This document shows positions 7,142 through 56,518 of a DNA stretch of 56,632 nucleotides, one piece after another. Location of the stretch: positions 1 to 56,632 of the IMG/VR virus record IMGVR_UViG_3300005613_003813. The stretch is one strand, 5' to 3'. Every line of letters starts with the position of its first letter. Position 1 is the stretch's first letter. Below the pieces are notes generated by a model. It saw nothing but the letters and a program-made list of their open reading frames with translations. It ran no database searches and was not told the DNA's origin. A program made the translations under genes and the position numbers. This DNA comes from a virus (lineage: Duplodnaviria > Caudoviricetes).

Positions 7142-7351
7142 TTAAGCCTTGTCAAGGTGCTTTTTCCAAACGGTTCCACTACTGGTACTGGTGTCACTAG
7201 TCGTTTTAAAAAGGTGCTTCCACTTTCGCATCTGCATCGTCGCCCTAACCTCCCCGTGTCCAGTAGTATCCCGCACATCCGACCAAGCCTGCCAGAACTT
7301 GATTAGCAGCTCCTCCTCCTTTTCAGAAAGTTTACCTAACTCTTCAAACAT
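7142..7351 (-). CDS. Hypothetical protein
   Basis: MFEELGK... start overlaps the TerL stop. Confidence 0.45.
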   Translation of the reverse strand: MFEELGKLSEKEEELLIKFWQAWSDVRDTTGHGEVRATMQMRKWKHLFKTTSDTSTSSGTVWKKHLDKA

Positions 7352-15755: not shown

Positions 15756-16528
15756 AGCACCGACTTCCCCACATACCCAATCAGCCGTTGGGCCTTCTTA
15801 ACCGAAAACAACGGTTCCGTTGAAGACTCCAGGCGCACTTCCGCATCCGGATGCACCTTTTTTAACCAAGCAATCGTATCCGGACAATACTTATTCGTTG
15901 TTGGGTCGCCAATGTTAAACACATCTGAGGGACCCTCGTACTCCGCCAACTTCTGCATAAACTCAATGAAGTTCTCCCTCGATACATGGGCAAAGAAGTG
16001 GGTCGGATCCAGCGGGGCCCCCGTCTCGAGCGCAATCGGGCCCTCCAGTCGGAAACAATATGCCTTAATGTCCTTCTGCCCCAGCAGATAGTCCTCGCAG
16101 GCCAACTTCGTCTTGCCGTAGACGGTAAGAAACTTATCAGGCGAACGGGGATAGTCCTCATCTATTGGGTAATACCCAAGATTAAAGGGCCTCCCCCCAA
16201 GTTCGATTCCGTAGGCCGCCCCCGAAGAAGAGAAAAGTATCTTCTTCACTCCAGCCAACCGCATACAACCAACAACGTGTACCAGCCCCCCAAGATTTAA
16301 CCTCATAAAATCTACATCAGATACGCCCTCAATTGGTCGCGGGTAAGCGGCAAGGTGGACAACCACATCCTTGCCCCGCATCCTTTCGACCAGCCGCGCG
16401 GTATCCCAAATGTCATCCTCGGTTGGCGCAAAAAAGTCATCAACCACATCGTAGGCATCAGACTCAAATGCTGGTCGGATTATTTTTCCCATCGCCCCAG
16501 CTCCGCCGGTAATTAGTGCTTTAACCAT
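15752..16528 (-). CDS. NAD-dependent nucleotide-sugar epimerase/dehydratase (extended SDR)
   Basis: ITGGAGAMG, VVHLAA, FSSSGAAYG, YGKTK. Confidence 0.9.
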   Translation of the reverse strand: MVKALITGGAGAMGKIIRPAFESDAYDVVDDFFAPTEDDIWDTARLVERMRGKDVVVHLAAYPRPIEGVSDVDFMRLNLGGLVHVVGCMRLAGVKKILFSSSGAAYGIELGGRPFNLGYYPIDEDYPRSPDKFLTVYGKTKLACEDYLLGQKDIKAYCFRLEGPIALETGAPLDPTHFFAHVSRENFIEFMQKLAEYEGPSDVFNIGDPTTNKYCPDTIAWLKKVHPDAEVRLESSTEPLFSVKKAQRLIGYVGKSVL

Positions 16529-18423
16529 TTCTTAATTAACACCTCCCATCGCTCCCTCTGTTTCTTGTACAACTCAAAGTAGGGATCATCCTCTTCCCCT
16601 TTCCAAAAGCCCTCGTTGAGACCGATCCCCCTGGCCTCCTTGACCAAGTTTTTATAGACATTGCTAGCACGCTCGTGCTTAACCGAAGCATAGCCGGTAA
16701 CGACCGCCCATCCTTTTTGGTCGATAATTCGTTTACTGACTATCCCCAACCAAATATCGGCGAACCTGTCCAGCCCTACTTTCTTTCCCATTGGCGCCCA
16801 ATACATATAAGGTAGCATCTTCCGCTTGAACGCCACGTTCATTCCGCAGTTGTGCACAACGAATCCCTCTGCCAAATAGGTACTATCAGTATCCACAGTT
16901 AAATCGTAAACATCTCCGGTATACTCGATCTTCTCAACACTACCCACCCCCACCTCCACGAAATCGGGGACACTTTTGTAAATGTGACTAGTTTTCTTCT
17001 TTTGTTGCTCCCACTCCATTTTACTATCCAAAATCTCCTTAGCAAAACTGGCGGCGTTCTCTCCATACAAAGTAACCTTGTACTGGGGATATTTTCTATT
17101 CCGCGCAGAATACTCTGTCAACCCACAATAAAAACCCAAACCAGTTACTAACAGTCGCACCTGTTCTGCCAACCCCTTACTAATCGTATGATAGCTTACA
17201 ATAGGGCGGCCCCTATTACTGCCAATATACCCATCCCCATCAAAAAGCCCCTGTAAAAGTTTTTGGATATTTCTACTACGCAAAACCTCCTCGGGAATAG
17301 TTTTCCCCCAAGCGTACTCTCCAACAAGTTCGTAAAAATACTTTGCTATCTCAACTCCGTATATTTCGTACCTAACACTATTTCCTACTACATACTTCGC
17401 AGGAACCTTGTTGTACTTTCCTCTGAAATAATCCTCTACTCTCCTACCAAATGTATCTTGCTCATTTGCCGCCAAACTGAAAGTAACACCATTTACCTTA
17501 TGAGAATTGGCCATATTTTTGTTTTTAGAGAAGCTCCCCTCCGCTATAAATAAACCAAGAATGTACATATCCTCATTTGATAAAGGCGACTGCCCACTAA
17601 ATGCAAGTTTGGGCAAGCGCAGACGGTCATCAGGAGATAAATCCCCACAACGCTTCCAACCAGCCGCAGTCAAAAACTCGTGGTCGGGGGTAGAGAACAA
17701 ATCAACCCCGCTACGCAAACTAACTCTCAAATGCTTGCCCTCAGAACTTCTTTTTATTTTCCTAAGCACCCTCCTCGTTTCCCCATTACCCGAGGTAACT
17801 AAATCTCCAACCACAATATCCTCTATCTTCCTCATCTCCCCGTTACCCATAACGACCTCGGTACCTGGAAGAAAACACATCGGGTAGTAGGTCCCCCTAG
17901 GAACGGGACCTCTGTAGAACTCAACATCAGGGTTGCCCTTAACAAGTTGGGTCGGAGCGTCGTAATCAGGAACCCCATACCAAACCCCGTGGGAAAGCAC
18001 CACCTCCGCCTCTTCCCGTATCTCATAGGGAAATCCCCGCATATACTCGTCGGCCGTTGACAACCACCTAATCGGCACATGCTGACGGAGTGCCTTAATG
18101 TGCTGGTCAATCGTATCGAACTTCGGAATGAGATCGTCGTCAAGAGTGATAATATACTCCACATCTGGTAGGTTTTTGGCAACATAAGCAAATCCCAAAT
18201 TCCTCACCCCGTCGTTGAAGTTGTAGATAAGATCGCTATCCATCCCCATTATATCCTCAACCGAGTTGTCAACACCGTTGTAAGTCAGCACAGGTTCTTC
18301 GCCATCCTCAACTACCACGAACGCCACCTCGTGAAGATTAAACAACCTCTGCCATGCCGGAATAAACTTTTCCTCTAGAAGATCGGGTCTAATCGTCGGA
18401 ACCACTACTGCGATGTTCGTCAC
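16513..18423 (-). CDS. RGP / UDP-arabinopyranose mutase-like (GT75) protein containing an intein
   Basis: ITLDDD, RGFPY, SHGVW..VPDYDAPTQLVK, PM|CGMNVAF, RFADIW match plant RGP signature motifs; start refined to GTG at 18423. Confidence 0.85.
   Translation of the reverse strand: MTNIAVVVPTIRPDLLEEKFIPAWQRLFNLHEVAFVVVEDGEEPVLTYNGVDNSVEDIMGMDSDLIYNFNDGVRNLGFAYVAKNLPDVEYIITLDDDLIPKFDTIDQHIKALRQHVPIRWLSTADEYMRGFPYEIREEAEVVLSHGVWYGVPDYDAPTQLVKGNPDVEFYRGPVPRGTYYPMCFLPGTEVVMGNGEMRKIEDIVVGDLVTSGNGETRRVLRKIKRSSEGKHLRVSLRSGVDLFSTPDHEFLTAAGWKRCGDLSPDDRLRLPKLAFSGQSPLSNEDMYILGLFIAEGSFSKNKNMANSHKVNGVTFSLAANEQDTFGRRVEDYFRGKYNKVPAKYVVGNSVRYEIYGVEIAKYFYELVGEYAWGKTIPEEVLRSRNIQKLLQGLFDGDGYIGSNRGRPIVSYHTISKGLAEQVRLLVTGLGFYCGLTEYSARNRKYPQYKVTLYGENAASFAKEILDSKMEWEQQKKKTSHIYKSVPDFVEVGVGSVEKIEYTGDVYDLTVDTDSTYLAEGFVVHNCGMNVAFKRKMLPYMYWAPMGKKVGLDRFADIWLGIVSKRIIDQKGWAVVTGYASVKHERASNVYKNLVKEARGIGLNEGFWKGEEDDPYFELYKKQRERWEVLIKKWLKH
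16849..17877 (-). mobile_element. Class 1 intein with LAGLIDADG endonuclease, 343 aa
   Basis: Starts CFLPGT and ends VHN before Cys+1; TPDH block B; LGLFIAEG and GLFDGDG motifs. Confidence 0.93.
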
Positions 18424-19175
18424 TTCTTCTCCTCCAATGGAGTAATTTTGTCCTCCTCCCGTTCCCACCACTTCATATCTATTGCCGGATCGCCGAAGGG
18501 CATAAGAAACTTCTCTTGTGTGTGTACCCCACCCCACTTCCTCCGGTAGTAGTCGTCGATGTGGGCCACATTATTTTGATAGTGCCGCATCAGCCGGGGG
18601 TCCTTAGTTACCCCGCCCGCCGTCGGGTGTGAGTGCCGGTTAAGTTCAATCCGTCTCCGCTCTAGTCCCAACAGTCCCATCCGGTAGCCGTGGTCGCAGT
18701 CTTCGTAAGAGTAAGGAACAATGTTTTCATCAAAAAGCCCCATCCTTTCTACACACCGGCGCATTACCGCAAAACAGTGCATATCCGTCTGGTGCTCAAT
18801 ACTCGGTGCCCAGTAGTAGTACCCCGGCTCCTCAGCCTCTGTGTTCTCGACCGCTTTAACCATTTCCTCAACCGACTCGTTGAAGATACAAGAGGGACTA
18901 AGGATTACCACATAATCAAGACCCTCTCGCATAGGTGAATCCCACTTATGATCGCGTCCCGCAAGCGCTATGTTAAAGTAGGCGGCGGCTCCTGGATTGG
19001 TCGGGTCGTGAATATACTCCGCGCCCTCCTTTTCTAATTCCTTAGCAAAAGCATCAACTTCAGGATTATCGAACCCGTTAAAAACAATCAGTTTGGATTT
19101 ATCGGGGATCTGGGCGGCCAACTGCTTGAATTCCTCAACCTGCGCCAAGACCCCTATTGCTATTTTGTAGTTCAT
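18420..19175 (-). CDS. GT2-like glycosyltransferase
   Basis: NPGAAAYFN, MGLFDEN...YEDCDH..RM, YYRRKWG. Confidence 0.75.
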   Translation of the reverse strand: MNYKIAIGVLAQVEEFKQLAAQIPDKSKLIVFNGFDNPEVDAFAKELEKEGAEYIHDPTNPGAAAYFNIALAGRDHKWDSPMREGLDYVVILSPSCIFNESVEEMVKAVENTEAEEPGYYYWAPSIEHQTDMHCFAVMRRCVERMGLFDENIVPYSYEDCDHGYRMGLLGLERRRIELNRHSHPTAGGVTKDPRLMRHYQNNVAHIDDYYRRKWGGVHTQEKFLMPFGDPAIDMKWWEREEDKITPLEEKK

Positions 19176-19822
19176 TTTGCCACCTCCTCAGTTTTAATCT
19201 TATGTACCCAAATAGTCGTGGCAACCCCAGGCACGCTTAGTGTTGTAAAGTCATTTCCACAAAGCCGATCCACCGCGCAAGTCACATCCGAACGGGCCAA
19301 CTCTCCCTCTGGCCCCTCTCGATTACCGTGATCGTGACCAGAGATGGTTCCCCCCGGCTTAATCTTTTTTGCGTAGTAGTAAATGTCATCGTCAATCACC
19401 GGATAGTTGTGGTTGCCGTCAATAAAACAAAAATCAAACGCCCCATCCGGCAGATACTTACGGATTTCCTGCGAGTTCCCCCTCAAAACAGCTACCGGTA
19501 AACCCCGCACATTTTCCCAGCAAATCTTAAAAAAGTCGGAATCGGAGACTGCCTCAGAGTAATTGTTTGTGTTGTTCGGTTTGTTCTTATACGAGTCTGG
19601 ATCCTCTACCCCCGCAAAGGTATCAATCGTGTAGAGAACCGCCCCCTTTTCTTTACAAACCGTGCCCAAAACATAAGTTGAGCGCCCTTTCCAAGCGCCG
19701 ATCTCAATTGCCCGCCCACCAGAAGGGATACTCTCCCAAGCCAAATCCCAAAGGCAATCCAAGTCGGCCCTAGTCATAAACCCCTGAATCTTTAATGCCT
19801 GTTCAATCGTCTTTTCCTTCAT
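19172..19822 (-). CDS. Class I SAM-dependent methyltransferase (Methyltransf_24-like)
   Basis: IEIGAWKGRST, FCFIDGNHxY, KPGG..SGHD. Confidence 0.9.
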   Translation of the reverse strand: MKEKTIEQALKIQGFMTRADLDCLWDLAWESIPSGGRAIEIGAWKGRSTYVLGTVCKEKGAVLYTIDTFAGVEDPDSYKNKPNNTNNYSEAVSDSDFFKICWENVRGLPVAVLRGNSQEIRKYLPDGAFDFCFIDGNHNYPVIDDDIYYYAKKIKPGGTISGHDHGNREGPEGELARSDVTCAVDRLCGNDFTTLSVPGVATTIWVHKIKTEEVAK

Positions 19823-20441
19823 AGAACTTAAAATCCTCCTTCCGCGGTCGGTAAAAGCAAGTCAAACCCCGCGGCGTCGCAAAATGGAACGGCCGCAACC
19901 TGTCCTCTTTGACTAACTTGATGATTTCCTTTGGCAGTTTTCCGAACGGCCAACCAAACCCCAACTCCTTGTTCTCTACCTGGCACATCCCCCCACCTAA
20001 ATCGTGAATCATTACTATTCCCCCGTCTTTTAGATTCTTTTCAAACTTTAGAAGCTCCTCAAATCTAATCTGCGGTTCGGTATCTAAAAGGATAATGTCA
20101 TACAGGTGCTGCGCGGCAAACTCCAATGAGTTCTCAATGTAGAACGTAATAAACTTCTCCAACCCCAACTCTGCCCACCTTTCCCTAGCTGTGTTCAAGT
20201 GCTGACCTTCCCACTCAATTGTATCCAAATGCCCAAAATCGTTTTCTTTCAAAGCCGCCGCCATATAGGAAGATGCTATCCCTTGGTGTGTGCCTGTTTC
20301 ACATATCCTTTCTGGTTTCATCATTCTAACCAACCCGTAAAGGAACTCACCCACCTCCAATTCCACACCCCCCGTGTTATTGCACACATATCTAGCGTCC
20401 GTTGGTTCCTGAATCTTACTCAACTTATCTGTAACCCACAT
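19803..20441 (-). CDS. Class I SAM-dependent methyltransferase
   Basis: ICETGTHQG, YDIILLD, LKDGGIVMIHD. Confidence 0.85.
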   Translation of the reverse strand: MWVTDKLSKIQEPTDARYVCNNTGGVELEVGEFLYGLVRMMKPERICETGTHQGIASSYMAAALKENDFGHLDTIEWEGQHLNTARERWAELGLEKFITFYIENSLEFAAQHLYDIILLDTEPQIRFEELLKFEKNLKDGGIVMIHDLGGGMCQVENKELGFGWPFGKLPKEIIKLVKEDRLRPFHFATPRGLTCFYRPRKEDFKFYEGKDD

Positions 20442-20444
20442 TAT

Positions 20445-21038
20445 TTATTTCCTCACCCACAACGACTGCTGCCCGTCGTATAAAAGATGCCAACCCTTCT
20501 TGAAAAGAAACTCCTTTGCCAGCCTGGTCTTTCCCCCACCGGGAAGATCGTTATCATCCAAAAGAACCACCGCCTTGGGGGCTAGATTTGGATACGCCAG
20601 CTTCAACTCCCTCAACTGGTGTTCCTGACAAGGCCCGACCGGCCCCTCCTCTGGTGTCAACGGGTAGTCCATCGTGTCCAGGTAAAGAAGATCAATCCTC
20701 TCGTCGAGCCCCTTTAGAAACTCCAGCGAGTCCATTTCAATGTGAGTAATACTACCCGCCCACGACTCCGTAATTATTTTACAGGCCTCAATGTGCGGCG
20801 GGTAGTTGTCAACAGTATAAATCTTACCCCCGTATTTGCCAACTACCTCAGCAAAGAGAAGGGTTCCCATCCCCGCTCCCCAATCATCCGGAGCCTTGGT
20901 CGTCCCCAGCTCAACGATCGTGTGCCCATGTCGCTGAAGAAACAGATTCAAGGCCAGCTTAAAGGTTACATACCGCCCGCCGGACTTCTCCTTATACTTT
21001 TCCTCAAACCAACCCCCGACCTGTAAGAAATCTTTCAT
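20445..21038 (-). CDS. Class I SAM-dependent methyltransferase
   Basis: IVELGT, DSLEFL, IDLLYLD, VVLLDD. Confidence 0.85.
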   Translation of the reverse strand: MKDFLQVGGWFEEKYKEKSGGRYVTFKLALNLFLQRHGHTIVELGTTKAPDDWGAGMGTLLFAEVVGKYGGKIYTVDNYPPHIEACKIITESWAGSITHIEMDSLEFLKGLDERIDLLYLDTMDYPLTPEEGPVGPCQEHQLRELKLAYPNLAPKAVVLLDDNDLPGGGKTRLAKEFLFKKGWHLLYDGQQSLWVRK

Positions 21039-21042
21039 AACT

Positions 21043-22107
21043 TTACAAACCTTCTAAGAATTCAGCCCACTGTTTTTTAATCCCCGCCTTCCCAAAAACC
21101 TCAATCGCTTTTTCCCGACCGGCGTCGCCGATCTTCCTGGCCAGCGCGCCGTCCTCTAAGAGCACCCCGACATACTTCTGTAACTCCTCAATCGTCTCCC
21201 CAACAAACCCCGTCACCCCGTTCTCAATCAACTCCGGCACCTCATAGGTATCTTGGTCAGGAAACTCCCGATAGAAACTCTTACCCAACGCTACTATAGG
21301 TATCCCTGTCATCCACGCCTCCATAAAATTCAAAACGTACGAGGCGGGTTGCGTGCCCGTAAAAAAGTATACCCGACTAGCCCTCAGCTCCTTTTTCAAG
21401 TCCTCAAAGCTCAGCTGTCCCCCAATAAGCCCACTTGCCTCGTTCCCTGGACCAAACAGCCGCCGCTCAAAAGGTCTGGTTGCTTCCTCAAAAGCCCCGA
21501 AGTTCAGGGATGTTCCCCGCTGTTTCATTGACTGCGCTATCGTTATCACCCGCTTCTCTATCCCGTTCCAGTCTTTGAACTCATTGGGGTCTTTATAAAA
21601 TCTAATTATTGCGTCGCCACCTACATACCCCGGAATAGTCTCCTCTTTAGGAGAGTAGCGAACAATCTTCAAACCGTCGTCACGGAAATTCTGCAAAGCC
21701 ACCTCCGTCGTCTCGTTTGACTGCCCTATGCTCCGCCAAACAACCGGTTTCTTTTTCAACCTTTCCCAATTGTTACCGGTCAGCCCGCCCGAAGTTGCCG
21801 GGGTTGCCCCTAGCCAGGGTTGGGGGTGGTCAATTACTTGAACCCTAGAATTGTGCATCATTACAACTATGTCTGCCCAATCCACCAACTGCGGGTGGAT
21901 ATTTTCTTTGGAACACTGGAGATAGATGGCGTGTAAATCGGGATGAACCCTTGCCCCCTTAATTGCCGGCCTGGTTATCCCCGCGTGGGCCGGGTTGCTG
22001 TACGCGCCCATAGAGTAAACGTCGTACCCCATCTCTGCAAAGAGAGAGACCTCGTCGTGCTCCAGAATTTCGTGCTAATGGCACGAGAGGTAAAGTATTT
22101 TCCTCAC
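21043..22107 (-). CDS. GT4 (GT-B) glycosyltransferase with an in-frame TAG at codon 11
   Basis: FMEAWMTGIPIV, ELIENGVTGF; GGAGGTGG SD and GTG at 22107 give MRKILYLSCH*HEILEHDEV, in frame with the ORF-track start at 22032. Confidence 0.8.
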
Positions 22108-22242
22108 GTGCTCACCACCTCCTTCGTAGTCTTACGACTAGCCTCCTCAGAGGACTTTACAAACCTAGTAAGAAACTTGTTCCAACCTTTCCATCCATAA
22201 CTATCTGTTCCTCGATGACATACTTTACAATAGGAAATGTTT

Positions 22243-23406
22243 TCATTTCGGCCACTTCAGTCCTTTCTTCCGTTCAATATTAATCTGTTTCTGAATATCC
22301 CGCAACCGGTCCTTCATGTACCGCCCCACCTGCTCAAAAGAAAAGTTTTGGTGAACAAAACTACAGCCCCGCGCCCCGATCTCCTTTGCCTCCTTCTGAT
22401 TCTCGAAAACCCAACGCATCTTCTTCCTCAACTCCCCAACCGACGGATTCGCCCACATCTGCTCAGTCCCGTACCACGGCGCAAACTCCATCCCGAAAAC
22501 ATTAACCAGGTCCGGAGTCAGGGGAAGGTAGCACTCCTTAGTAAACCAATCGTGGACGCCACCATAATTAGTAGCAATCACGGGCTTACCAAAACCCGAG
22601 GCCTCTACCATCGGAATACCCCAACCCTCACCACGGTGCGGCAACACAAAACAATCCCCCGTCTGGTGAATTCGGAAAACATCCTTCTTATCTAGCAACC
22701 CCACGTGGACAAAAATATCCGCGGGGTTCTTATTAGCCGCGCTGTTCTTCCACTCCCAAATCTTAGCCACAATATCCTGCATCTCCCCCGATGTAAAGTG
22801 CTCCCGGTAGGTTTTAAGCAAAAGCCCCACATTCTCATCAGACGAAAACTCCTCTAAGAACGCTTTAACCAGCGCTTCGGGGTTCTTCCTTTGGATCCAT
22901 TGAAAGATAGAATAAAAAAGGTAGCCGTTAAAGCCACCACGGAGCTTGAAGTTGTTATATCTTTTATTAAACATTTCGGTATCAATTGGTTCGGGGAAGA
23001 TATAGATCGGTCTGGTCACGCCCGATTTCAAAAAGGCCTGTTTGTTGTGCTCGCTCCCTGTCCAAATCTCATCCATTAGGTTACAGTTCCAAACCCAGAG
23101 CGGAGACATCCTATCCGTTTCCCAAAACAGGTGGCCGATGTGGTACTTACAGGGCTCCATATACTTCATGTAACCATCACAGGGAACGTGAACAATTCTA
23201 ATATCGTAGGGAATATCTCGCCCCTCAAGCTCCCTAACGAGCTTGTAAGCGTCACCAAAGTAGTTAGTATCATTATTACTGTAGGAGACAATCTCGGTTA
23301 CTACATCGACCCCTGCCGCGTTCAGGGCGCAAACAAAGTTACGGTTGGCTTCCCCATACCCACTAGGATCTACAAGGGGACCAACATATTTACAAGCCGC
23401 CCTCAT
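22243..23406 (-). CDS. GT4 glycosyltransferase
   Basis: SGYG, RKNP, FVLPHRGEGWGIPMVEA..GKPVIATNYGG. Confidence 0.92.
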   Translation of the reverse strand: MRAACKYVGPLVDPSGYGEANRNFVCALNAAGVDVVTEIVSYSNNDTNYFGDAYKLVRELEGRDIPYDIRIVHVPCDGYMKYMEPCKYHIGHLFWETDRMSPLWVWNCNLMDEIWTGSEHNKQAFLKSGVTRPIYIFPEPIDTEMFNKRYNNFKLRGGFNGYLFYSIFQWIQRKNPEALVKAFLEEFSSDENVGLLLKTYREHFTSGEMQDIVAKIWEWKNSAANKNPADIFVHVGLLDKKDVFRIHQTGDCFVLPHRGEGWGIPMVEASGFGKPVIATNYGGVHDWFTKECYLPLTPDLVNVFGMEFAPWYGTEQMWANPSVGELRKKMRWVFENQKEAKEIGARGCSFVHQNFSFEQVGRYMKDRLRDIQKQINIERKKGLKWPK

Positions 23407-23920: not shown

Positions 23921-24104
23921 TTTTCCTCCACCACTTCCCATACTTCTTTTTCCTTCGTTCGTATTGTGCCTTTTGTCTACAGGTCCCCGAGCAGTATTTC
24001 ATATTGTCCCACTGTCTCTGAGTCCTCATGCCATAGTCCCCCCGTGTAAACCGCTTTAAGCAGTTTGGGCAAATCTTACTTGGGTCAGTTTCGCCATTAC
24101 TCAT
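23910..24104 (-). CDS. Small Zn-finger protein
   Basis: CPNC...KYCSGTC. Confidence 0.6.
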   Translation of the reverse strand: MSNGETDPSKICPNCLKRFTRGDYGMRTQRQWDNMKYCSGTCRQKAQYERRKKKYGKWWRKNER

Positions 24105-24251
24105 CCCGCTACTCCATTTCTACCTACCGAAATTAAACCAAGGATACCAACCGCCCCTATAAGAACGATAGTTAAACAAATAACTACAAACGCTTGAATT
24201 AGGTTCATCTAATACCTATCAACAAACTCACAAATTATTACAAACACATTG

Positions 24252-24806
24252 TCATTGTTTTTCCTCAACCCTAACCTCTATTACCCCCCTACTTGTTGGT
24301 GCCAACTCTTCAAACGCCCCCCGCGATAAATCGATCACTCTTCCTAGTTTTTCGAACGCCCCCGTATCCGTCACCACAATATCCACACACCTTCCCGTGT
24401 CCACAGCGCAAACGCGAAGCCGATCCCCACAGCCGTGGCGAAGAGAAGCAGCAGTAAACTCATCAGGATTAAAAACATCCCCACACGCAGTAGTCCGTCC
24501 AGCAAACGCCTCCCCGTACCAGCTTGCCGCCCCTGTATATGATGTTTCGCTATATAATCCAGCTGCATCAGGTCGTAATGGTTTAAATTGTTCGGCTTTG
24601 ATTTTGAAAATAGTGATTGTATTCGCATAGTTTACTCCTCGAGAAGTGTTAGCAGTAGCAACACAAAGATTACCCCAAGTGGTACAAGTATTACTAACGT
24701 AAGAATGTCCATAACCAATTACCGCCCTTCTCCGTAGGACTACAACTGCCAAAAATATCAAGCCCAACGCCCAGATGATTAAGGTCAACCGCCTCGAGCC
24801 AAGCAT
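24252..24806 (-). CDS. Membrane-anchored RlpA-like (double-psi beta-barrel) lytic transglycosylase
   Basis: N-terminal TM helix; GAASWYG, RTTACG, FTAA, VTDTG, RVIDLSRGAF. Confidence 0.88.
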   Translation of the reverse strand: MLGSRRLTLIIWALGLIFLAVVVLRRRAVIGYGHSYVSNTCTTWGNLCVATANTSRGVNYANTITIFKIKAEQFKPLRPDAAGLYSETSYTGAASWYGEAFAGRTTACGDVFNPDEFTAASLRHGCGDRLRVCAVDTGRCVDIVVTDTGAFEKLGRVIDLSRGAFEELAPTSRGVIEVRVEEKQ

Positions 24807-24809
24807 AAA

Positions 24810-24975
24810 CTCTGCAAAGCGTGCAGATTAGGTAGGGTAAGTCAAAAAGTGACTTAGAGGTACCAGAAAGGAGGTGAACCCCAAAGGGTACCTACCCTAC
24901 CAAACCTACGCGCTTTGCAGAGGATGCTAGAGGAGGCATTGACCACACTGCCCCCGTGGTCAACTTCCTCTAGCA
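24810..24975 (-). ncRNA. Candidate structured RNA (long three-way-junction hairpin plus a second hairpin)
   Basis: Nested complementary stems read directly from the sequence; see findings. Confidence 0.55.
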
Positions 24976-24982
24976 ACCCCTA

Positions 24983-25627
24983 CTAATCGGTATGTATTAT
25001 TAAATTGTAAAGGTCCGCCGTAATCACCGGATAAAGTTTATCACCTTTGGCAAACTTCTTCACCTGGTTAGCGATCAGCCCCCCAATGACTGCCGTATTG
25101 TAGACCACGCTCCGTTCGGTACAAGGACCGTTTTCCACATCCGCCGGAGGGACCAACGTCGTAAGAAACTGACTCGGACTTTTTACCGTATAAATCTCGA
25201 TCTGTTCTCCCCCCATCCGACCGTCAATCAGAAGTTTCCAAAATCCTCCAGATAACCCCGCCTTCCCCAATTCCCATCGTACGGCCATCGAATCTACTGC
25301 CAAAATCACAATTCCTCCCAGTGGCTCCGATGAGTAGTGCCGCGGCACCGCAATAATATCCACCCCAGCAAATTTCTTAATGTGCCCGGCCAACGCCTCG
25401 GCCTTATTCCTCCCTACGTCTTCTTCCGCGTAGAATTGGGAGGGTAGATTGTGCCCCTCAACTTTGTCCCCGTCAAAGACGGTAATGGCTCGGCAGCCGA
25501 TTTTACTAAGGTATAAGGCGGCCCAAGATCCGATTCCTCCAACTCCAATGATGGTGATTGGTTCGAGGAGCGCTTCGGGTAGGACGATGCTTTCTTGTCT
25601 TTTGAACTTTTCTTCTTCTTTCCCCAT
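24983..25627 (-). CDS. E1-like (ThiF/MoeB family) ubiquitin-like activating enzyme
   Basis: GVGGIG, DGDKVEGHNLPSQ, KAEAL, AVDS, IDGR, putative catalytic GPCT; no Zn-binding CxxC pairs. Confidence 0.92.
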   Translation of the reverse strand: MGKEEEKFKRQESIVLPEALLEPITIIGVGGIGSWAALYLSKIGCRAITVFDGDKVEGHNLPSQFYAEEDVGRNKAEALAGHIKKFAGVDIIAVPRHYSSEPLGGIVILAVDSMAVRWELGKAGLSGGFWKLLIDGRMGGEQIEIYTVKSPSQFLTTLVPPADVENGPCTERSVVYNTAVIGGLIANQVKKFAKGDKLYPVITADLYNLIIHTD

Positions 25628-26136
25628 CCGAATCGGAACTTCACCTCCTTTACCTTCTCTTTCATCTCAGCATCACACCACTCCAAAATTGCGTCGTTCT
25701 CCGATGAGTAAAGCCAAGGTAACTTATCAAAGGTCAACCGAGAGGGCTCAAAAACATCTACACGACAGAGCAGGTCTATCTCGTCACCGCCCTTAGAAGC
25801 TACAATAGAAAGAACCCACGGCATATTCATCTCTTCAATAGTTGTATCGTCGGTCAGACTCCAAAAAGCGTTCATATTCCCGTGAGAGTGCCACCAAATG
25901 TTCCAATCGGCTGGGTTCTCGCCCTTCTCAATTAAGTCTTGAAGAAAGTCGCTAACCGCATCTTCCTCAATGATCGTCGAAGCCGACGAAACCCGCTGCT
26001 CAAGGACAATAATATCCTTCACGAAAATACTCTCGCCGGTGACTTCTGTCCGACCAAAGCCGCTAACCTCTCCCGTCGCCAGGCTTACAAAGTATTTAAT
26101 TTTTAAGAACGCCTCGTTTGTAAAATGAATTTTCAT
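25414..26136 (-). CDS. JAB/JAMM metallopeptidase (deubiquitinase-like)
   Basis: GEVSG...WWHSHGNMNAFWSLTD (E..HxH..S..D); start refined to MKIHF; the last 214 nt overlap the E1 gene. Confidence 0.88.
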   Translation of the reverse strand: MKIHFTNEAFLKIKYFVSLATGEVSGFGRTEVTGESIFVKDIIVLEQRVSSASTIIEEDAVSDFLQDLIEKGENPADWNIWWHSHGNMNAFWSLTDDTTIEEMNMPWVLSIVASKGGDEIDLLCRVDVFEPSRLTFDKLPWLYSSENDAILEWCDAEMKEKVKEVKFRFGWGKKKKSSKDKKASSYPKRSSNQSPSLELEESDLGPPYTLVKSAAEPLPSLTGTKLRGTIYPPNSTRKKT

Positions 26137-26138
26137 TA

Positions 26139-26774
26139 TTACCCAGTCATCATATTTGCATTTGCCCCTTCGGTCCACGTGGTCCCCACCGTTTGCCAAT
26201 TTTGCGCATAAGAGAGCCCCTCTGGGGAACGCCCCGGCCCCGTTCTAGCACTAGGAACCGTAAGAATCTCCCCGTCACCTATCCAAAACCCAGACAGTTC
26301 GAGAGACTCCGAAACCTCTGGAACCTCATCAGCCCCCCTCAGAGCTCTCTTTTTCCGACCTGTAATCAGATCCTCCCTCTCATCTCCAGAGAGTGGGTCC
26401 GTGTGCGCTTCCCACTTATAGGGGTGTATCCGGGGGTCCTCCTCACTCCAAGTCTCCAAGTACTCAAAGGCTGTATCGACCAAAAGGGAAAGATTACCCT
26501 CCCGGTACAATCTCTCAATGACTCTCCCAAAGTCCCCCCAACAAGCCTGACCATGTTCCTGCGTAACACAGGGGTGGCTGTAACCGCCGCGGCGACCGTG
26601 CGCCACCTGGGTAAGGTTAAAAAACCTAATCTCTTGGCAACTGGAATTCGGGATCTCTACCAAAAAGCGACCCAAGGTAATCCGACTTCTCCCGTCGGCC
26701 ATCTCTAATTCTTTTGTAAAAAGTGCTAATGTGTTACCCCAGACCTCAACTTTCTCAAGCGGATACTCCTTCAA
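26139..26774 (-). CDS. E2-like conjugating domain (probably the C-terminal part of a coiled-coil-E2 fusion)
   Basis: HPCV...GQACWG resembles the E2 HPN...C active-site motif; position between Ubl and JAB. Confidence 0.7.
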   Translation of the reverse strand: MKEYPLEKVEVWGNTLALFTKELEMADGRSRITLGRFLVEIPNSSCQEIRFFNLTQVAHGRRGGYSHPCVTQEHGQACWGDFGRVIERLYREGNLSLLVDTAFEYLETWSEEDPRIHPYKWEAHTDPLSGDEREDLITGRKKRALRGADEVPEVSESLELSGFWIGDGEILTVPSARTGPGRSPEGLSYAQNWQTVGTTWTEGANANMMTG

Positions 26775-27073
26775 CTCCTGAACAAACTCCTTAACCCTTG
26801 CCTCGACGTACTTTTTTTTTTTTTTCTCTGCTCCTTCAATTCGGCGACGCCCTTATCTATCTCCTCCAAACGCTTCTTTTCCGCTTTTAACTTATCTTCG
26901 TAGACCTTTACCTGCCGCCTCGAGGACTCCACGTAAGACTTTGCCGATTCCAAGTCCTTCTCAGCCACATCTACACGATGCGCCTGTTTGTTCTTTTTTC
27001 CTTCGGCCACTGCTAACTCCTTGTTAAGGAATTTCCGGTAGTAGCCTACTAATTTCTCAAAAGTTATTTTCAT
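26771..27073 (-). CDS. Coiled-coil protein (N-terminal part of the E2, separated by an A14 tract)
   Basis: Heptad-rich charged sequence; the -1 frame after the A14 run continues without a stop into the E2 ORF. Confidence 0.65.
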   Translation of the reverse strand: MKITFEKLVGYYRKFLNKELAVAEGKKNKQAHRVDVAEKDLESAKSYVESSRRQVKVYEDKLKAEKKRLEEIDKGVAELKEQRKKKKSTSRQGLRSLFRS

Positions 27074-27113
27074 CGGTATAGTAGTCTCCCCCCTTTAGTG
27101 TTCCCCTCCTTTT

Positions 27114-27332
27114 CTAGCGTCCACCCTCCTTGCGTCCGGTAACAGTAATCAAATCCCCATCTTTAAGATCTACATCCTCAAAATCTCTGCGAACCTTTTT
27201 CCTGTTCACCCGAACGACATCGCTTCGCGTGGAACTCATCCCCGCTAAATCCAATGCGTCCTCCAAGGAGAACTCGTCATCGACCGTGTACTCTTTGGTT
27301 TGGGCACCCAACCTACCAATCTTTATCTGCAC
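27114..27332 (-). CDS. Ubiquitin-like (beta-grasp) protein, 72 aa, ending GG-R
   Basis: GTG start behind a GGGGGTGA SD gives MQIKIG...VRVN...LKDGDLITVTGRKEGGR. Confidence 0.85.
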   Translation of the reverse strand: MQIKIGRLGAQTKEYTVDDEFSLEDALDLAGMSSTRSDVVRVNRKKVRRDFEDVDLKDGDLITVTGRKEGGR

Positions 27333-27361
27333 CTTTTTCACCCCCTTCCACGGGTCTAAAA

Positions 27362-27991
27362 TCAAAAAAACTGGAGTCTCTCTTTCCAGTCACCGTTGTT
27401 ATTCCTCTCTTCGAGAACCACCTCCTTCAGACGCCTGCACTCTTCCTTGGTCTCCGCCAACTTCGCTGTTAGTTCTGCGTTCTGCTCAAGAAGCTCCTGG
27501 TACCGTTTCTCAACGAACGCCACCGCCGCACTCTGGACCCCCTTAAAAGCGGTATCCAGCTCCTCAAAAGCATCATCAGGGGCATCCTCTTTCTTGGTGG
27601 CGGACAAACGCGGTTTGTAGATTTTCTTACCCCACTCATTCCTCCCTTTAAGGTAATGGGTCACGTAACGCTTGGCCGTCGTACCTGCCACACCAAGCCT
27701 TTCCCCAAGCTCCTTCCACGTAAGTCCTTCCTCTTTCCGCAACCGTGCCATTTCATCCGCGGCCTCACGACTGACCTTCATAAAGGGCTTCCTACCCGTA
27801 CCCTGTGCCCTCATCTTGGACGTCGAACCAGGCGAGTAAACGCCGGCTACCGTACAATTGCTAGAGATAGTCCCAACAGGAACATTAAACATCCTTGAAA
27901 TTTCGGTCAGGGACGTTCCCTTGCGACGCTCCTCAAACCACATCTCTTTCTCTTGAGCGTCGTATTTAAATCTTTTATCTTTATCTGCCAT
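27362..27991 (-). CDS. Tandem-HTH protein with C-terminal coiled coil
   Basis: GTSLTEISRMFNVPVGTI and GLTWKELGERLGVAGTTAKRY; start refined to MADKDK. Confidence 0.7.
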   Translation of the reverse strand: MADKDKRFKYDAQEKEMWFEERRKGTSLTEISRMFNVPVGTISSNCTVAGVYSPGSTSKMRAQGTGRKPFMKVSREAADEMARLRKEEGLTWKELGERLGVAGTTAKRYVTHYLKGRNEWGKKIYKPRLSATKKEDAPDDAFEELDTAFKGVQSAAVAFVEKRYQELLEQNAELTAKLAETKEECRRLKEVVLEERNNNGDWKERLQFF

Positions 27992-28007
27992 CTTTTTATC
28001 ACCCCCC

Positions 28008-28601
28008 CTATGCCGGAACTTTAACTTCTTCCGGTTCAACATCCTCACCACCCGACGGTACACTCTTGTCCTCCGGCTCTGGGGCCTTTGGAGCCGCCGG
28101 CGGGTTAACCTTTTCTCGCTCCAGCCGGCGCTCTTCTATTCCTTCGATAAGGTCCTTGGCAAACTGCTTCTCGCCGTCGTCTAACTTCTTGGCATCGGCG
28201 CCCGCGTCCTTAACCTTAACAATGTTGGCCCAAATCCTACCCTTAGAATCAGTCTTGTGGGAAACCTTACCCTTGAAGAACCCCCCAACCAAGTCATTGA
28301 TATTAAAGGGCTCAACGTCCTCAAGAATCTCCTTGGTGACGGCACAAGCAAGATCGTACAAATGGGACGAGCTCCCACCCTCAAACCCTGCGGTGTAGGC
28401 GCGACTAATCCGACGAGTAATAAGTTTTCCCCGTTGGGCATCGTCAAGAACGATACAGTAAACACGAAGGAAATCCCTTACCCCATACGCGGTCTCCACG
28501 TCGATCAATTCGTCAATATCAACAATCTCGAAGTTATAGAGGCCCTCTGGCAACGCCTCTGGCGGTTCGTTTTTTATCGAAGCTCTATCATCAGTCAGCA
28601 A
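28008..28601 (-). CDS. Putative phage single-stranded DNA-binding protein (OB fold)
   Basis: LPEGLY, DLVG, KGRIWANI and an acidic tail; TTG start behind a GGGGGTGA SD. Confidence 0.55.
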   Translation of the reverse strand: MLTDDRASIKNEPPEALPEGLYNFEIVDIDELIDVETAYGVRDFLRVYCIVLDDAQRGKLITRRISRAYTAGFEGGSSSHLYDLACAVTKEILEDVEPFNINDLVGGFFKGKVSHKTDSKGRIWANIVKVKDAGADAKKLDDGEKQFAKDLIEGIEERRLEREKVNPPAAPKAPEPEDKSVPSGGEDVEPEEVKVPA

Positions 28602-29244
28602 TTTCTTCACCCCCTTCCCGTAAAATATCTCTATAATTAGTAGTTGCCGCACGTTTTCCGGAATTACAACTACGGCACAACGGCTGTATATTATCAATAT
28701 AATCCGAACCACCCATACTCAAAGGAACGATATGGTCCTCTGTTAACCTAATTTCCGGTTCAAACCTTTTACAACAGAGACACATATACCCAAAACTCTC
28801 TTTCAGATCTTCCCACTCTTCAAAAGTGTGGCTACCAACAGCCCCCCTTTTACTTGCTCTATACCTCTGATTTCTAAACAACTTCTTTTCTCTTTGCGAT
28901 ATCCCCTTAGGATAACTACGAACCCTCTGCCCCCGCTTCTCCACACCTAGCTTTGATGCCCCAACTCTTTGCTCCCGACCCTCCGAGGAATTAGCCCACC
29001 TACGCAACTTTTCTTTAGTTTCCTCGGAATGTTTATTACCAATGTGCGCAATACTTAAATTTCTTTTGTGCTCGTCGCTAAACTTACTCCCCACCAAAAC
29101 AACACTCATAGCCAAACCTATGTTCCGTTTATGCTCATCCGAAAACTCTTTTCCCGACCAATAACATACCGGGTTTCTCAGGCGGGCACGCCGCATCTTA
29201 ACTTTAGTTTCCTCTGTATGTTTATAACCTGCTCTTCTTCCCAT
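28591..29244 (-). CDS. Free-standing NUMOD3-HNH homing endonuclease
   Basis: Repeated H(T/S)EETK and SDEHKRN motifs; CLCC..DHIVPLSMGG..NIQPLCRSCN. Confidence 0.88.
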   Translation of the reverse strand: MGRRAGYKHTEETKVKMRRARLRNPVCYWSGKEFSDEHKRNIGLAMSVVLVGSKFSDEHKRNLSIAHIGNKHSEETKEKLRRWANSSEGREQRVGASKLGVEKRGQRVRSYPKGISQREKKLFRNQRYRASKRGAVGSHTFEEWEDLKESFGYMCLCCKRFEPEIRLTEDHIVPLSMGGSDYIDNIQPLCRSCNSGKRAATTNYRDILREGGEEIAD

Positions 29245-29275
29245 ACTTACCTACTTTCAAATTACAAATCTATAC

Positions 29276-29539
29276 CTAGATCACTCTCCAGTCCTCACTA
29301 AGAAGATCCCCATCACCAACAATCCAGGGATGAAACTTACCATCACCTTTAACACCACCCTTGATCATCAACCTCTCATTTTTGAGAACCCCATAAATCT
29401 CCGGATCTTCCCACTCGTCTCTGGTGATCTTCGCTCCGTCGGTAACTTTATCGACCGCCTCACCAAAGGTCATCCCCTTTTTTTGCCCCAACTTCTTAAC
29501 CACAGGACTCGTTGCCGGACTTGTTGTATGTTCTGCCAT
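29276..29539 (-). CDS. DUF2829 / Tad2-like anti-defence sponge protein
   Basis: MTFGEA...GAKITRDEW...PW...DLLSEDW family pattern. Confidence 0.75.
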   Translation of the reverse strand: MAEHTTSPATSPVVKKLGQKKGMTFGEAVDKVTDGAKITRDEWEDPEIYGVLKNERLMIKGGVKGDGKFHPWIVGDGDLLSEDWRVI

Positions 29540-33145: not shown

Positions 33146-33379
33146 TCACTTACTTAGTACTGCCTTCCCACCTGAATAAAGCCCGCTCGCGCTGAGCCCG
33201 AAGGCTCCCCCTACTAAGAGGGCCTGTGTAGGATCAGAATAGGTAAAGAACCCCAGGATAAGCCCTAAGGCTACAGAAAGCACCGGAGCAAATTTGGAAG
33301 GAAGACCGAGCCGCTTAACGACCTCGACTAAACCAACCACTAATGGAACTAAACCAATCCCATAAAATTCCGTGTTCAT
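33146..33379 (-). CDS. Holin
   Basis: 77 aa, three hydrophobic segments, GLSASGLYSG motif, adjacent to the lysin. Confidence 0.85.
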   Translation of the reverse strand: MNTEFYGIGLVPLVVGLVEVVKRLGLPSKFAPVLSVALGLILGFFTYSDPTQALLVGGAFGLSASGLYSGGKAVLSK

Positions 33380-34406
33380 TCTTCCTCACCCCCTCTCCAC
33401 CAACCGTTTTGTCGCTACTGGCACTGGGGGCCGGATTTTCAAGAAGTTTTGGTAGTTTTTTCTCTATTTCCGCTAATCTTTCCCCCAGGTTCCCCAGTTG
33501 GCCTGTAAGAGTAGTGACCCCCTCTTGAAGCTCTTTCACCGTCTCCCCCATTGTATCCACCTTAGAAGAGGTTTCAGAGGCAACTTTTCTGTCTGCTTCC
33601 AATTCAGAACGTAATTGACTATTGTCTACTGCCAAATTGTCAATTTTAGTATTGAGGGTTGTAGTTAGTTTGTTCACTGCCCGTTCGGTGTCCGAAGCAT
33701 GGGTGGTGAGTGCGGAAAGTTTGTTTTCCAACTCCAACGAAGCGAAAAGCTCAGCGACGGTTACAGATGTGTTCTTTTGGCTCGCATCCCACCTATCCAA
33801 TTCTTGCTTGGTTGGGTCCCTATGGTAAAGGGCTCGATAGATACTAACAATTGTGTCTCTTCTGTTCATTTCTATCTCCTCACCCCCCTCCAACGATCCA
33901 GTAGGAATCAAAACTTGACAGTTTTTATTTCCGTGCTCCTGGTTCGTTGATTGCCACATCTTCCTCCAGGGCTCGTTTTTAATTGTGACGGTATCCCCAT
34001 AGACCTTTCCTCGTAACCGGTTAGGGTCGTGACAAATAATTGTATTCGCCGTTTGGCCAAAGGCGACTACAAAATGCGGACCGTTGTACTTATCTTGTTT
34101 TTTAGGAAAGTGTCTATAGTTGACTAAGGCGACCGCAGGAAAACCCTCTTTGATTTTCTGCTTCAAGGTATCGAGACTGAAAATGTGGTGCTCGACATTT
34201 AGTCCGTACTTTCTTGAGGCAATACCCAATTTGTCAAAGGTAATGAGAGAATTAGGGGAGGCACCGGTTGCGCGGAACACTTCGTCAACAGACTTATCAA
34301 TTCCGTAGGCTGCCAACAACATTGAGACACAGGCCGGACCACAATCGTCTCGGCTTTCATTAGCGCCAACACCCCATTGGGACTTGTAGGGAACTTTAAG
34401 TTTCAC
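33315..34406 (-). CDS. Peptidase C39-like endolysin with C-terminal coiled coil
   Basis: VPYKSQ, DCGPACVSM, HFVV, HDP catalytic-triad pattern. Confidence 0.8.
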   Translation of the reverse strand: MKLKVPYKSQWGVGANESRDDCGPACVSMLLAAYGIDKSVDEVFRATGASPNSLITFDKLGIASRKYGLNVEHHIFSLDTLKQKIKEGFPAVALVNYRHFPKKQDKYNGPHFVVAFGQTANTIICHDPNRLRGKVYGDTVTIKNEPWRKMWQSTNQEHGNKNCQVLIPTGSLEGGEEIEMNRRDTIVSIYRALYHRDPTKQELDRWDASQKNTSVTVAELFASLELENKLSALTTHASDTERAVNKLTTTLNTKIDNLAVDNSQLRSELEADRKVASETSSKVDTMGETVKELQEGVTTLTGQLGNLGERLAEIEKKLPKLLENPAPSASSDKTVGGEGVRKNEHGILWDWFSSISGWFSRGR

Positions 34407-55922: not shown

Positions 55923-56518
55923 TTTCTAACCACCACTAATTTATTGTTACGGAACTTCTTCGGAGTAAACCCAACCACCTCAACTTTATAATCACTCAAA
56001 GCCCGTGAGATTTTTCTTGTCCACTCGGTATCTTCAATTATATAGGTAACGCCGTCATCCAACAATGGGAGGAGTGTTTGAGCGAGAAAAATCTGGTGGG
56101 GGGACCTATGGGAGCCGTCATCAACAAACAGATCAATATCCGAGCCCGCCTGCTCTACCAACCGTTCAATATCTTCTTTTTTAGTTTCGTCGCAGAGGAA
56201 GGTTTTAATCCGCTCGTCCTCAAACAGCGTATCTGGGCGGATGTCCGCCCCATAGATTTGGGCATTGGGGAAGAAGTCCCGCCACATTTTTAAACTAGCG
56301 CCGCGTTTGTATTTCCTTTTTAATTGGTTGTCCCAGACCTCACTAACGTGCTTCATACAACCGTAGTAACCAATACCCATCTCTAAGACCTTTTTGACTT
56401 CGCTTCGTTTGTCTTTGAAGAGTTTGTAGTAATAGGGGGTATAGGAGTGCTTAATCTGAGGGCATTTGTCGGTGCCGTATTTGTACGCAATTTCACAAAG
56501 TTCGGTTAGATTTTCCAT
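55919..56518 (-). CDS. Sugar O-methyltransferase (MycE/TylE-like)
   Basis: YGTDK..HSY, LEMGIG, GASLKMWRDFFP, VDDGSH, YIIED; start refined to MENLTE. Confidence 0.8.
   Translation of the reverse strand: MENLTELCEIAYKYGTDKCPQIKHSYTPYYYKLFKDKRSEVKKVLEMGIGYYGCMKHVSEVWDNQLKRKYKRGASLKMWRDFFPNAQIYGADIRPDTLFEDERIKTFLCDETKKEDIERLVEQAGSDIDLFVDDGSHRSPHQIFLAQTLLPLLDDGVTYIIEDTEWTRKISRALSDYKVEVVGFTPKKFRNNKLVVVRK

Follow-up and report, generated by a model that had tools for sequence, protein, structure and literature searches.

A phage gene cassette with the folds and catalytic motifs of a compact ubiquitin-like protein conjugation system

The virus record IMGVR_UViG_3300005613_003813 is a complete genome of 56,632 bp with direct terminal repeats, and the whole of it was analysed here (the window). 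Between positions 24983 and 27332 its minus strand holds five back-to-back, co-oriented open reading frames (ORFs) that supply the four components of one cassette: a ubiquitin-like protein (Ubl), an E2 carrier enzyme that we read as spanning two of the ORFs, a JAB/JAMM metallopeptidase and an E1 activating enzyme. Each of the four products has the fold and the full set of catalytic motifs of its class (Ubl, E1, E2 or JAMM peptidase), and in many phage genomes these components travel together as a unit. By strong analogy with characterised systems we consider it rather probable that they would act as a self-contained, phage-encoded cascade for Ubl conjugation.

The original prediction, which was made from the sequence letters, had placed at this position a 72-amino-acid (aa) beta-grasp protein ending in Gly-Gly-Arg, separate coiled-coil and E2 ORFs, a JAB peptidase and a ThiF-type E1 with a candidate catalytic cysteine. 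All four genes, their coordinates, their motifs and the shared strand were borne out by the ORF list and the sequence. The assignments themselves also held: the beta-grasp identity by profile matches, an AlphaFold2 (AF2) model and Foldseek; the peptidase by a full JAMM motif in 24 sequences and a match to Rpn11-like proteins; the E1 by Pfam ThiF, invariant motifs and the alignment of Cys169. A UBC fold, the absence of which from the 26139-26774 product was to have counted against the whole proposal, emerged from the AF2 model, a structure ranking, a profile match to UBE2L3 and the active-site motif. The further statement that no thiamine, molybdopterin or tRNA-thiolation genes lie nearby agreed with a Pfam scan of 51 window ORFs (8 at E up to 0.1 and 43 at E up to 1e-4), in which no thiamine, molybdopterin, sulfur-transfer, cysteine-desulfurase, rhodanese, PP-loop, ParB or CD-NTase family was matched.

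The Ubl gene begins with GTG at 27332, preceded by a purine-rich, Shine-Dalgarno-like stretch (GGGGGTG), and its product ends in ...RKEGGR. A family profile matched PF1061, ThiS, MoaD, SAMP2 and TtuB (E 2e-4 to 9e-3), and its Gly-Gly aligned on the terminal Gly-Gly of PF1061, ThiS and the others matched. The AF2 model (predicted local distance difference test score, pLDDT, 87.5) has the beta-beta-alpha-beta-beta order of a beta-grasp fold, and all 50 Protein Data Bank (PDB) matches listed by Foldseek, mostly ubiquitin, SUMO and ThiS-type proteins, had a probability of 0.99-1.00; the best template modelling (TM) score among them belonged to ThiS (3cwi, 0.69/0.72). The window Ubl gave no match to Pfam ThiS at E up to 0.1, and stayed below the curated threshold of NCBIfam ThiS PRK08364 (13.2 bits against a cutoff of 80).

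In every one of 14 aligned window-type Ubls an extension of 1-34 residues follows the conserved Gly, and none of the 14 ends at the Gly itself; we therefore read these proteins as precursors. A second group, the Group B Ubls that accompany an E2 protein of about 590 aa, ends in SG plus one or two residues. In type II Bil, as available passages of PMC10557695 describe it, the JAB peptidase BilC cuts BilA between Gly97 and a single last residue, Ala98. The arrangement Gly71-Arg72 of the window Ubl would be the same situation, and by this analogy the terminal Arg would be removed in the same way. That the JAB protein trims the Arg, as had been proposed, is thus supported indirectly, by the 14 tails, by the near-constant presence of JAB beside E1 and by BilC; the cleavage step itself stays a proposal modelled on BilC.

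The E1 protein matched Pfam ThiF at E 2.9e-21 (76.2 bits against a cutoff of 28.1), the domain covering residues 24-196. Its best NCBIfam matches were likewise ThiF models (56.5 against a cutoff of 159), and its scores on the NCBIfam equivalog models ThiF, MoeB, TcdA, UbaA, PRTRC_ThiF and 6A-MBL cap2_3 all lay far under their cutoffs. On these scores the protein is, as judged from its sequence, a member of the E1 superfamily outside every named family. Metagenomes contained 83 homologues of about 205-260 aa, many of them on contigs of 40-60 kb. In 23 aligned sequences G28, G30, I32-G33-S34, D52, D54, K75, D112, R137 and C169 are invariant, and R10, the arginine of an N-terminal 'RQ', is nearly so. 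C169 lies within a 'PCT.RS' motif, and the protein has one other cysteine. An E1 profile found UBA1, UBA6, UBA5 and ThiF at about 1e-16, and placed the 'PCT' cysteine on the Cys of 'PFCT' in UBA6, while the match to Escherichia coli ThiF ended at residue 184. We take the UBA6 residue to be the catalytic Cys625 and the ThiF residue to be the reactive Cys184. There is no rhodanese domain, and a length of 214 aa leaves no room for a separate Cys domain.

The E2 ORF contains HPCV...GQACWG, in which HPC occupies residues 67-69 and the candidate catalytic Cys78 (ORF numbering; 26543-26541) follows in an HPC-x8-C arrangement. The window protein has three close relatives only. An exhaustive profile search at E up to 1e-3 gathered a family of 198 proteins, 170-650 aa in length; in most of them the matching region of about 120 residues is C-terminal, and the N-terminal parts were coiled-coil-like in those inspected. 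An alignment of 60 family sequences has one invariant Cys (Cys78) and one invariant Gly, and a His-Pro pair 11 residues before the Cys in at least 90% of sequences. The family profile reached human UBE2L3 at E 1.8e-4, aligning 'HPhV..g.pCl' on 'HPNIDEKGQVCL' (HPN...C).

Structural comparison gave the same answer. The AF2 model of the E2 domain (pLDDT 94.5; predicted TM score, pTM, 0.88) was ranked with VIA, independently of Foldseek, and UBC E2 proteins filled the first 19 places (Z 7.5-6.4; alignments covering 119-130 of 147 residues). RWD-type relatives came next, along with the bacterial CdnG-E2 and Cap2 (Z 5.4 and 5.2). In Foldseek the top PDB matches were nearly all E2 enzymes, the exceptions being 2y22_F and 8q5h_K. 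Since Z values below 8 are middling, the fold call rests jointly on this ranking and on the active-site motif. As modelled, the E2 is a UBC-fold protein with a classical HPx...Cys site, and thioester formation is predicted for it.

Domain libraries barely register this family. Among 26 family matches scanned against Pfam, one touched UQ_con at 2.9e-5, below threshold; none of 60 family members reached the UQ_con gathering threshold (one member came closest to it with 24.1 bits against a cutoff of 27), and no family member matched Prok-E2_A to Prok-E2_E. A Pfam scan of 16 long family proteins gave no extra domain that would hint at a target. In the ESM Atlas the family fell into unnamed, mostly viral clusters only. 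A profile of the close E2 family found no locus in viral contigs, and in metagenome contigs it returned only one contig, identical to the window. The C-terminal tails of the family are variable and often carry an aromatic, Thr-rich (WTTT-like) patch, and some end in acidic residues (L013:4972-5865, P0003, P0004 and window 26139-26370; the window tail is not acidic). One member ends in ...GSDDDSNVPF, which to our eye resembles the C-terminal tip of bacterial single-stranded DNA-binding protein.

The JAB protein carries the metal-binding and catalytic motif E...HxHx7Sx2D, of which E23, H83, H85, S93 and D96 are invariant in 24 homologues (His83 at 25890-25888 and His85 at 25884-25882 in the window). 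A profile of these 24 homologues, taken from related loci, matched a Caldiarchaeum Rpn11-like protein at 2.1e-11 and then Rpn11, CSN5 and AMSH; the window protein stayed below the Pfam Prok-JAB threshold (19.4 bits against a cutoff of 25, E 9.7e-4). Its core ends near 25628, and its last 70 or so codons overlap the E1 gene. The ORF runs 214 nt into E1 because the junction reads ATGG, so that the usual ATGA stop/start overlap is lost. Within 80 E1 genes the median open run in the JAB frame is 1.5 codons, and it reaches at least 60 codons in three of the 80. Two loci (L004 and L006) have a similarly long overlap, and the tails look like out-of-frame sequence. A conserved overlapping gene or a frameshift fusion of JAB and E1 was considered and rejected on these two grounds. 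Judged from the reading frames, the extension looks like read-through after loss of the stop codon that leaves the catalytic core untouched.

Table 1. Features of the cassette, with positions in the window
Feature	Position	Strand	Remarks
Ubl precursor	27114-27332	-	72 aa; Gly70-Gly71 at 27125-27120, then Arg72 and stop
Coiled-coil part of E2 gene	26771-27073	-	100-aa ORF, Lys/Glu-rich
A14 run (T on the plus strand)	26812-26825	-	-1 reading-frame change between coiled-coil and E2 parts
UBC-fold E2 domain (predicted) and variable C-terminal tail	26139-26852	-	listed ORF 26139-26774, TTG 26774, 211 aa
JAMM/JAB metallopeptidase	25414-26136	-	listed ORF 25414-26199; probable ATG 26136; contains HSHGNMNAFWSLTD
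E1, single ThiF-type adenylation domain	24983-25627	-	214 aa; candidate catalytic Cys169 at 25123-25121

The coiled-coil and E2 parts had been described as separate ORFs. The E2 identity stands, as set out above; the separateness does not, and the two look like one gene broken at the A14 run, the longest homopolymer in the window (Table 1). Both frames are open right up to this run. The coiled-coil ORF ends 40 nt past it, and the E2 frame, which is the -1 frame, continues upstream across the run without a stop, giving ...KKKKKYVEARVKEFVQELKEYP. Used alone, the 100-aa coiled-coil ORF found no homologue and gave only weak coiled-coil-type matches. Against a family profile built without the window and its three closest E2 relatives, this ORF aligned to positions 56-115, just before the E2 domain (15.5 bits, a weak score), and the E2 frame, including the stretch upstream of TTG 26774, aligned to positions 93-236. 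At the other viral loci, 42-257 residues of one single ORF precede the E2 domain. An independent E2 start at TTG 26774 (in a TTGA overlap) was considered less likely, because homology to the relatives continues upstream of it; it would also leave the UBC fold without its N-terminal helix (model residues 2-15). From the profile alignment, the single ORF of the relatives and the loss of this helix we read the two ORFs as one gene, in which the coiled coil can be annotated as an ORF of its own only because of the frame break.

With a single A more, the E2 frame would be restored. The metagenome contig identical to the window (L001) starts just 5 nt ahead of the run, and a break at this point suggests read-level trouble there. 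A homopolymer of 14 nt is a classic place for assembly errors, and slippage of RNA polymerase on such a run can restore the frame in part of the transcripts. The break may stem from a miscall in the homopolymer; alternatively, transcriptional slippage may put a fraction of the mRNA back in frame. The RNA beyond the run has no stable fold (z +1.27; 180 of 200 shuffled sequences fold as well), so that a -1 ribosomal frameshift site of the classical, structured kind is not supported. The three closest E2 relatives are likewise called as short proteins that start at the E2 domain, so the split may be a trait of a small clade.

The association of the four components was followed by scanning an E1 alignment against IMG/VR, which gave 127 confirmed stretches, 80 loci of which were kept and examined. 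By ORF clustering the JAB cluster was present in 75 of 81 sources (74 of the 80 viral loci, and the window). A hidden Markov model (HMM) of the E2 domain matched 41 of the 80 loci, always on the strand of E1, and all 41 had an adjoining ORF with a JAMM motif; several loci are cut by contig ends, so that absences are soft. An HMM of the Ubl, built from ten loci and the window, matched six further loci. The gene order is Ubl-E2-JAB-E1 or E1-Ubl-E2-JAB. A FastTree phylogeny groups the E1s found with window-type E2s in a single clade (support 0.78), which contains 11 such E1s, two HMM-only ones and one from a locus with no E2 match. In four other loci the 27 flanking ORFs include DnaB, primase, AAA_24, UDG, dUTPase, thymidylate kinase and exonuclease; among relatives the cassette usually sits among replication and nucleotide genes. 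A blastn search of the cassette against GenBank phages gave no match, and the single E1 used as query against genome contigs found no relative.

Three subtypes can be told apart. The window type comprises about 15 loci, and the second, marked by the E2 protein of about 590 aa, comprises 32 loci by clustering. The third is that of crAss-like phages and phages of Flavobacterium psychrophilum, in which the protein before JAB carries 'HSH...C.G'; hhalign relates it to the E2 profile (probability 56%, E 1.2e-4), and from its sequence it is probably a divergent E2. A structure search of BFVD with the window E2 model also matched proteins of a CrAss-like virus and of phage cr128_1 (TMq 0.58 and 0.56). 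Existing annotations in these crAss-like and FpV4-type phages name the E1 'thiamine biosynthesis protein' (gp50 in FpV4) and the JAB 'metalloprotease'. In loci L021-L030 and similar ones, in Flavobacterium phage FpV4 (L083) and in the crAss-like Kolpuevirus (L084), two proteins precede E1 and JAB; one is the 'HSH...C.G' protein, and the other has an N-terminal Ubl-like part ending in KSG[SA], then a long acidic tail.

According to the mechanism that we propose, the Ubl would be made as a Gly-Gly-Arg precursor from which JAB removes the Arg. The small and probably dimeric ThiF-type E1 would then adenylate Gly71 with ATP and take the Ubl onto Cys169 as a thioester, before passing it to Cys78 of the UBC-fold E2 domain. 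No E3 is encoded, and the E2, with its coiled coil and variable tail, would probably choose the target itself and transfer the Ubl to a lysine; JAB could also remove the tag again. Because relatives lie in a replication context and a Tad2-like gene lies 2 kb from the window cassette, our best guess for the target is a protein of phage or host that acts early in infection, where replication and defence meet. A more daring version is possible, and we offer it tentatively: phages from crAss-like gut viruses to cultured Flavobacterium phages may run minimal ubiquitination as an offensive or house-keeping tool, the coiled-coil E2 serving as its own substrate adaptor that tags host defence or replication proteins, or the phage replisome, early in infection, with slippage at A14 setting the dose of active E2 in the window phage.

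The closest comparison is with the Bil systems. Characterised Bil and type II CBASS Cap2/Cap3 are bacterial anti-phage systems, as far as the available parts of 10.1101/2023.09.04.556158, PMC11601596 and PMC10557695 describe them. Like the window cassette, Bil has separate genes for Ubl, E2, JAB and E1 in the order bilA-bilB-bilC-bilD, with no E3 in the description given by the available text of PMC10557695; its Ubl is made with residues past the reactive Gly, one of which BilC removes (same passages), and its E2 has a UBC-like fold. Unlike Bil, which is bacterial and directed against phages, the present cassette is carried by a phage. BilD is a multi-domain E1 with inactive and active adenylation domains and a mobile Cys domain (PMC11601596, in the part available), whereas the window E1 is a single domain of 214 aa that carries its Cys on a short 'PCT' loop. 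In the passages of PMC10557695 that cover it, the E2 of type II Bil (BilB) is of the CEHH type, whereas the E2 described here combines the classical HPx...Cys site with a coiled coil at its N-terminus; the Ubl of the window also differs in being ThiS/MoaD-like by profile. In sum, the gene order and the precursor tail are those of Bil, and the multi-domain E1 architecture is absent.

The PRTRC set (NCBIfam TIGR03735-03738 and neighbours) also combines a Ubl with a C-terminal Gly, an E2-like protein, a JAB and an E1-like protein lacking rhodanese, and is found on mobile DNA. The window proteins matched it weakly (E1 against PRTRC_ThiF, 3.7e-10; JAB against PRTRC_A, 5e-3) and below the cutoffs (39.5 against 144.75 and 16.4 against 101.8, respectively); the E2 and the Ubl had no match to PRTRC models, and none of 60 E2-family members matched PRTRC_B. 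The type 6d operon, in the available text of Iyer, Burroughs and Aravind (2006; PMC1779556), has an E2 without the classical His and a JAB with a JAB-N domain. In the present E2 family, by contrast, His-Pro is nearly invariant, and the JAMM Glu comes as early as residue 23 in the JAB protein, which leaves no room for JAB-N. Neither ParB, which belongs to the type 6d set, nor an extra alpha-helical protein was matched among the 51 window ORFs.

The archaeal SAMP/UbaA/HvJAMM1 system and the operon of Caldiarchaeum subterraneum share with the cassette a small ThiS/MoaD- or ubiquitin-like tag, a compact E1 and a JAMM peptidase. The Caldiarchaeum operon comprises ubiquitin, E1, E2 and Rpn11-like genes, and its Rpn11-like protein is the best solved-structure match of the JAB profile. 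These archaeal systems differ in being cellular and linked to the proteasome and to sulfur transfer. To our knowledge the SAMP system has no E2, and the window E1 scored 29.9 on NCBIfam SAMPActivE1UbaA against a cutoff of 450. Type II CBASS and 6A-MBL likewise have a ThiF-type E1 module with a Cys, a UBC-like E2 module and a JAB, and the window E1 matched 6A-MBL cap2_3 at 9.6e-13 and PADLOC Cap2-type 'E1-E2' models at up to 1.6e-14. In those systems, however, E2 and E1 are fused (in 6A the JAB as well), a Ubl gene is lacking and a CD-NTase or MBL protein serves as cargo, whereas the present cassette has four separate parts and a dedicated Ubl, and no CD-NTase or MBL gene was found among the 51 window ORFs. 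The defining layout of type II CBASS, an E2-E1 fusion beside a CD-NTase and an effector, is thus absent from the window.

On phages, the available text of PMC1779556 describes the TAPI/TAPK tail pair only. In this pair of lambda and T1 (same source), TAPI is a Ubl with a C-terminal Gly and TAPK joins a JAB to NlpC/P60, which makes it a phage-borne parallel; it comes without E1 or E2 and belongs to the tail module, whereas the present cassette includes both and is located apart from the block of virion genes. From these comparisons the cassette appears to work like the systems above while falling in none of the named families, and is best regarded as an undescribed subfamily.

Several observations weigh against a working conjugation cascade. 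The E1 has no ubiquitin-fold domain (UFD) or other obvious E2-docking module. The window E2 protein has no match in Pfam, NCBIfam, PADLOC or PHROG models; its VIA ranking peaks at Z 7.5, in the range below 8 where a match can reflect a common arrangement, and its top Foldseek PDB matches are weak (E 0.04-0.5, TM 0.3-0.48). The Ubl is by profile of the ThiS/MoaD class, which also serves as sulfur carriers. Neither a target nor an E3 can be identified from the cassette or the genome. The E2 frame is broken and the JAB stop is lost in the window genome, which could mean decay. Finally, the literature search, outside which lay the supplementary operon lists of Bil/Bub, turned up no description of a phage-encoded E1-E2-JAB-Ubl cassette.

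The last but one of these points leads to a sceptical account, in which the cassette of the window genome is a decaying remnant with a truly frameshifted E2 and a lost JAB stop, and nothing works. The -1 break in A14, the change from ATGA to ATGG at the JAB/E1 junction (with open runs of at least 60 codons in that frame in only three of 80 E1 genes) and the short calls for the three closest E2 relatives fit such decay. We think it improbable: every catalytic residue is intact in all four proteins, both frames stay open up to the A run, the run is of a kind known for assembly errors and slippage, the identical contig breaks off at it, and the JAB extension spares the catalytic core. If the proteins are functional, they might instead serve a sulfur-carrier pathway, in which the E1 adenylates the ThiS/MoaD-like protein for thiocarboxylate formation, sulfur passes to a nucleoside, DNA base or cofactor, and JAB only matures the carrier. 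This would suit the best Ubl profile matches (ThiS, MoaD and TtuB), the ThiF models as best NCBIfam matches of the E1 and the nucleotide-metabolism genes around the relatives' cassettes. It is nevertheless very improbable, as no cysteine desulfurase, rhodanese, PP-loop ATPase, ThiG/ThiH or MoaE was found in the 51 window ORFs or the 27 flanking ORFs of four other loci, the E1 lacks a rhodanese domain and falls far short of the ThiF equivalog cutoff (56.5 against 159), and no known sulfur relay employs a UBC-fold protein with an invariant Cys.

Two further accounts keep the ubiquitin-like chemistry and change its purpose. The cassette could be a phage-carried defence of the Bil kind, used by an infected or lysogenised cell to tag the structural proteins of rival phages. 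The characterised relatives, Bil and CBASS Cap2/Cap3, are anti-phage in the sources cited above, the gene order is that of bilA to bilD (PMC10557695, in the part available) and the E1 scores well on the Cap2-type models of PADLOC. Such a role is unlikely, however, given that the relatives' cassettes, including those of crAss-like and Flavobacterium phages, lie inside a replication and nucleotide module and not in a variable accessory spot, that the E1 tree follows E2 type, that the single 214-aa E1 domain is unlike the multi-domain BilD, and that no integrase or lysogeny gene was matched in the window. Alternatively, the cassette could be a counter-defence, its JAB stripping host Ubl or cGAS conjugates made by Bil or type II CBASS while host enzymes are sequestered by the phage Ubl and E1 and nothing is productively tagged. 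No protein accompanies E1 more constantly than JAB (75 of 81 sources), JAMM enzymes do cleave such conjugates according to the available part of PMC10557695, and the Tad2-like, anti-Thoeris gene (29276-29539) is 2 kb away. Yet a lone deconjugase would suffice for this purpose, whereas the ATP site and Cys of the E1 and the Cys of the E2 are conserved, and the conserved precursor tail of the Ubl fits an activated tag; we regard this account, too, as unlikely. A self-contained conjugation cascade remains the reading that we favour.

The chemistry of Bil and type II CBASS, a bacterial weapon against phages, is here encoded by a phage, and in the smallest form seen, with a 214-aa E1, a 72-aa tag and no E3. 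The family counts at least 127 occurrences in IMG/VR and reaches cultured Flavobacterium phages (the FpV4 group) and Bacteroides crAss-like phages; because cultured carriers exist, the question of the target is directly testable. Such cassettes are missed in routine annotation, since the E2 family is not captured by current domain libraries. If conjugation is confirmed, virus-encoded ubiquitin-type tagging, which is familiar from eukaryotic viruses, would exist in phages too, and if the tags serve to take over the host, they would amount to a broad post-translational device comparable in its logic to phage protein kinases.

The window genome encodes a major head protein, a portal and a large terminase, and nearly all of its genes are on the minus strand. 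A promoter and terminator scan of 24000-29500 gave nothing above shuffled sequences that helps to fix the limits of the operon, and no replication genes were recognised in the window. Directly downstream of E1, the ORF at 24252-24806 (minus strand) encodes a protein that resembles RlpA/DPBB lytic transglycosylases (DPBB_1, 1.3e-15) and whose N-terminus is hydrophobic. On the upstream side, about 2 kb from the cassette, the 87-aa product of 29276-29539 (minus strand) matches the Tad2-like Thoeris anti-defence domain above threshold (PF11195, E 3.5e-10). A Peptidase_C39-like protein (33315-34406, minus strand; E about 7e-12) adjoins a 1649-aa protein and other unannotated, presumably virion, proteins. 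The genome has two intein-like insertions: the large terminase (7344-9785, minus strand) contains a Hom_end/LAGLIDADG insert, and a glycosyltransferase of the 'reversibly glycosylated polypeptide' type (16513-18537, minus strand) has Intein_splicing and LAGLIDADG domains. The set of sugar- and methyl-transfer genes is unusually large, with three GT2, one GT1 and four Methyltransf_24 proteins, a UDP-glucose dehydrogenase and an epimerase, all on the minus strand at 3-875, 15752-16528, 18420-23406 and 51327-56572.

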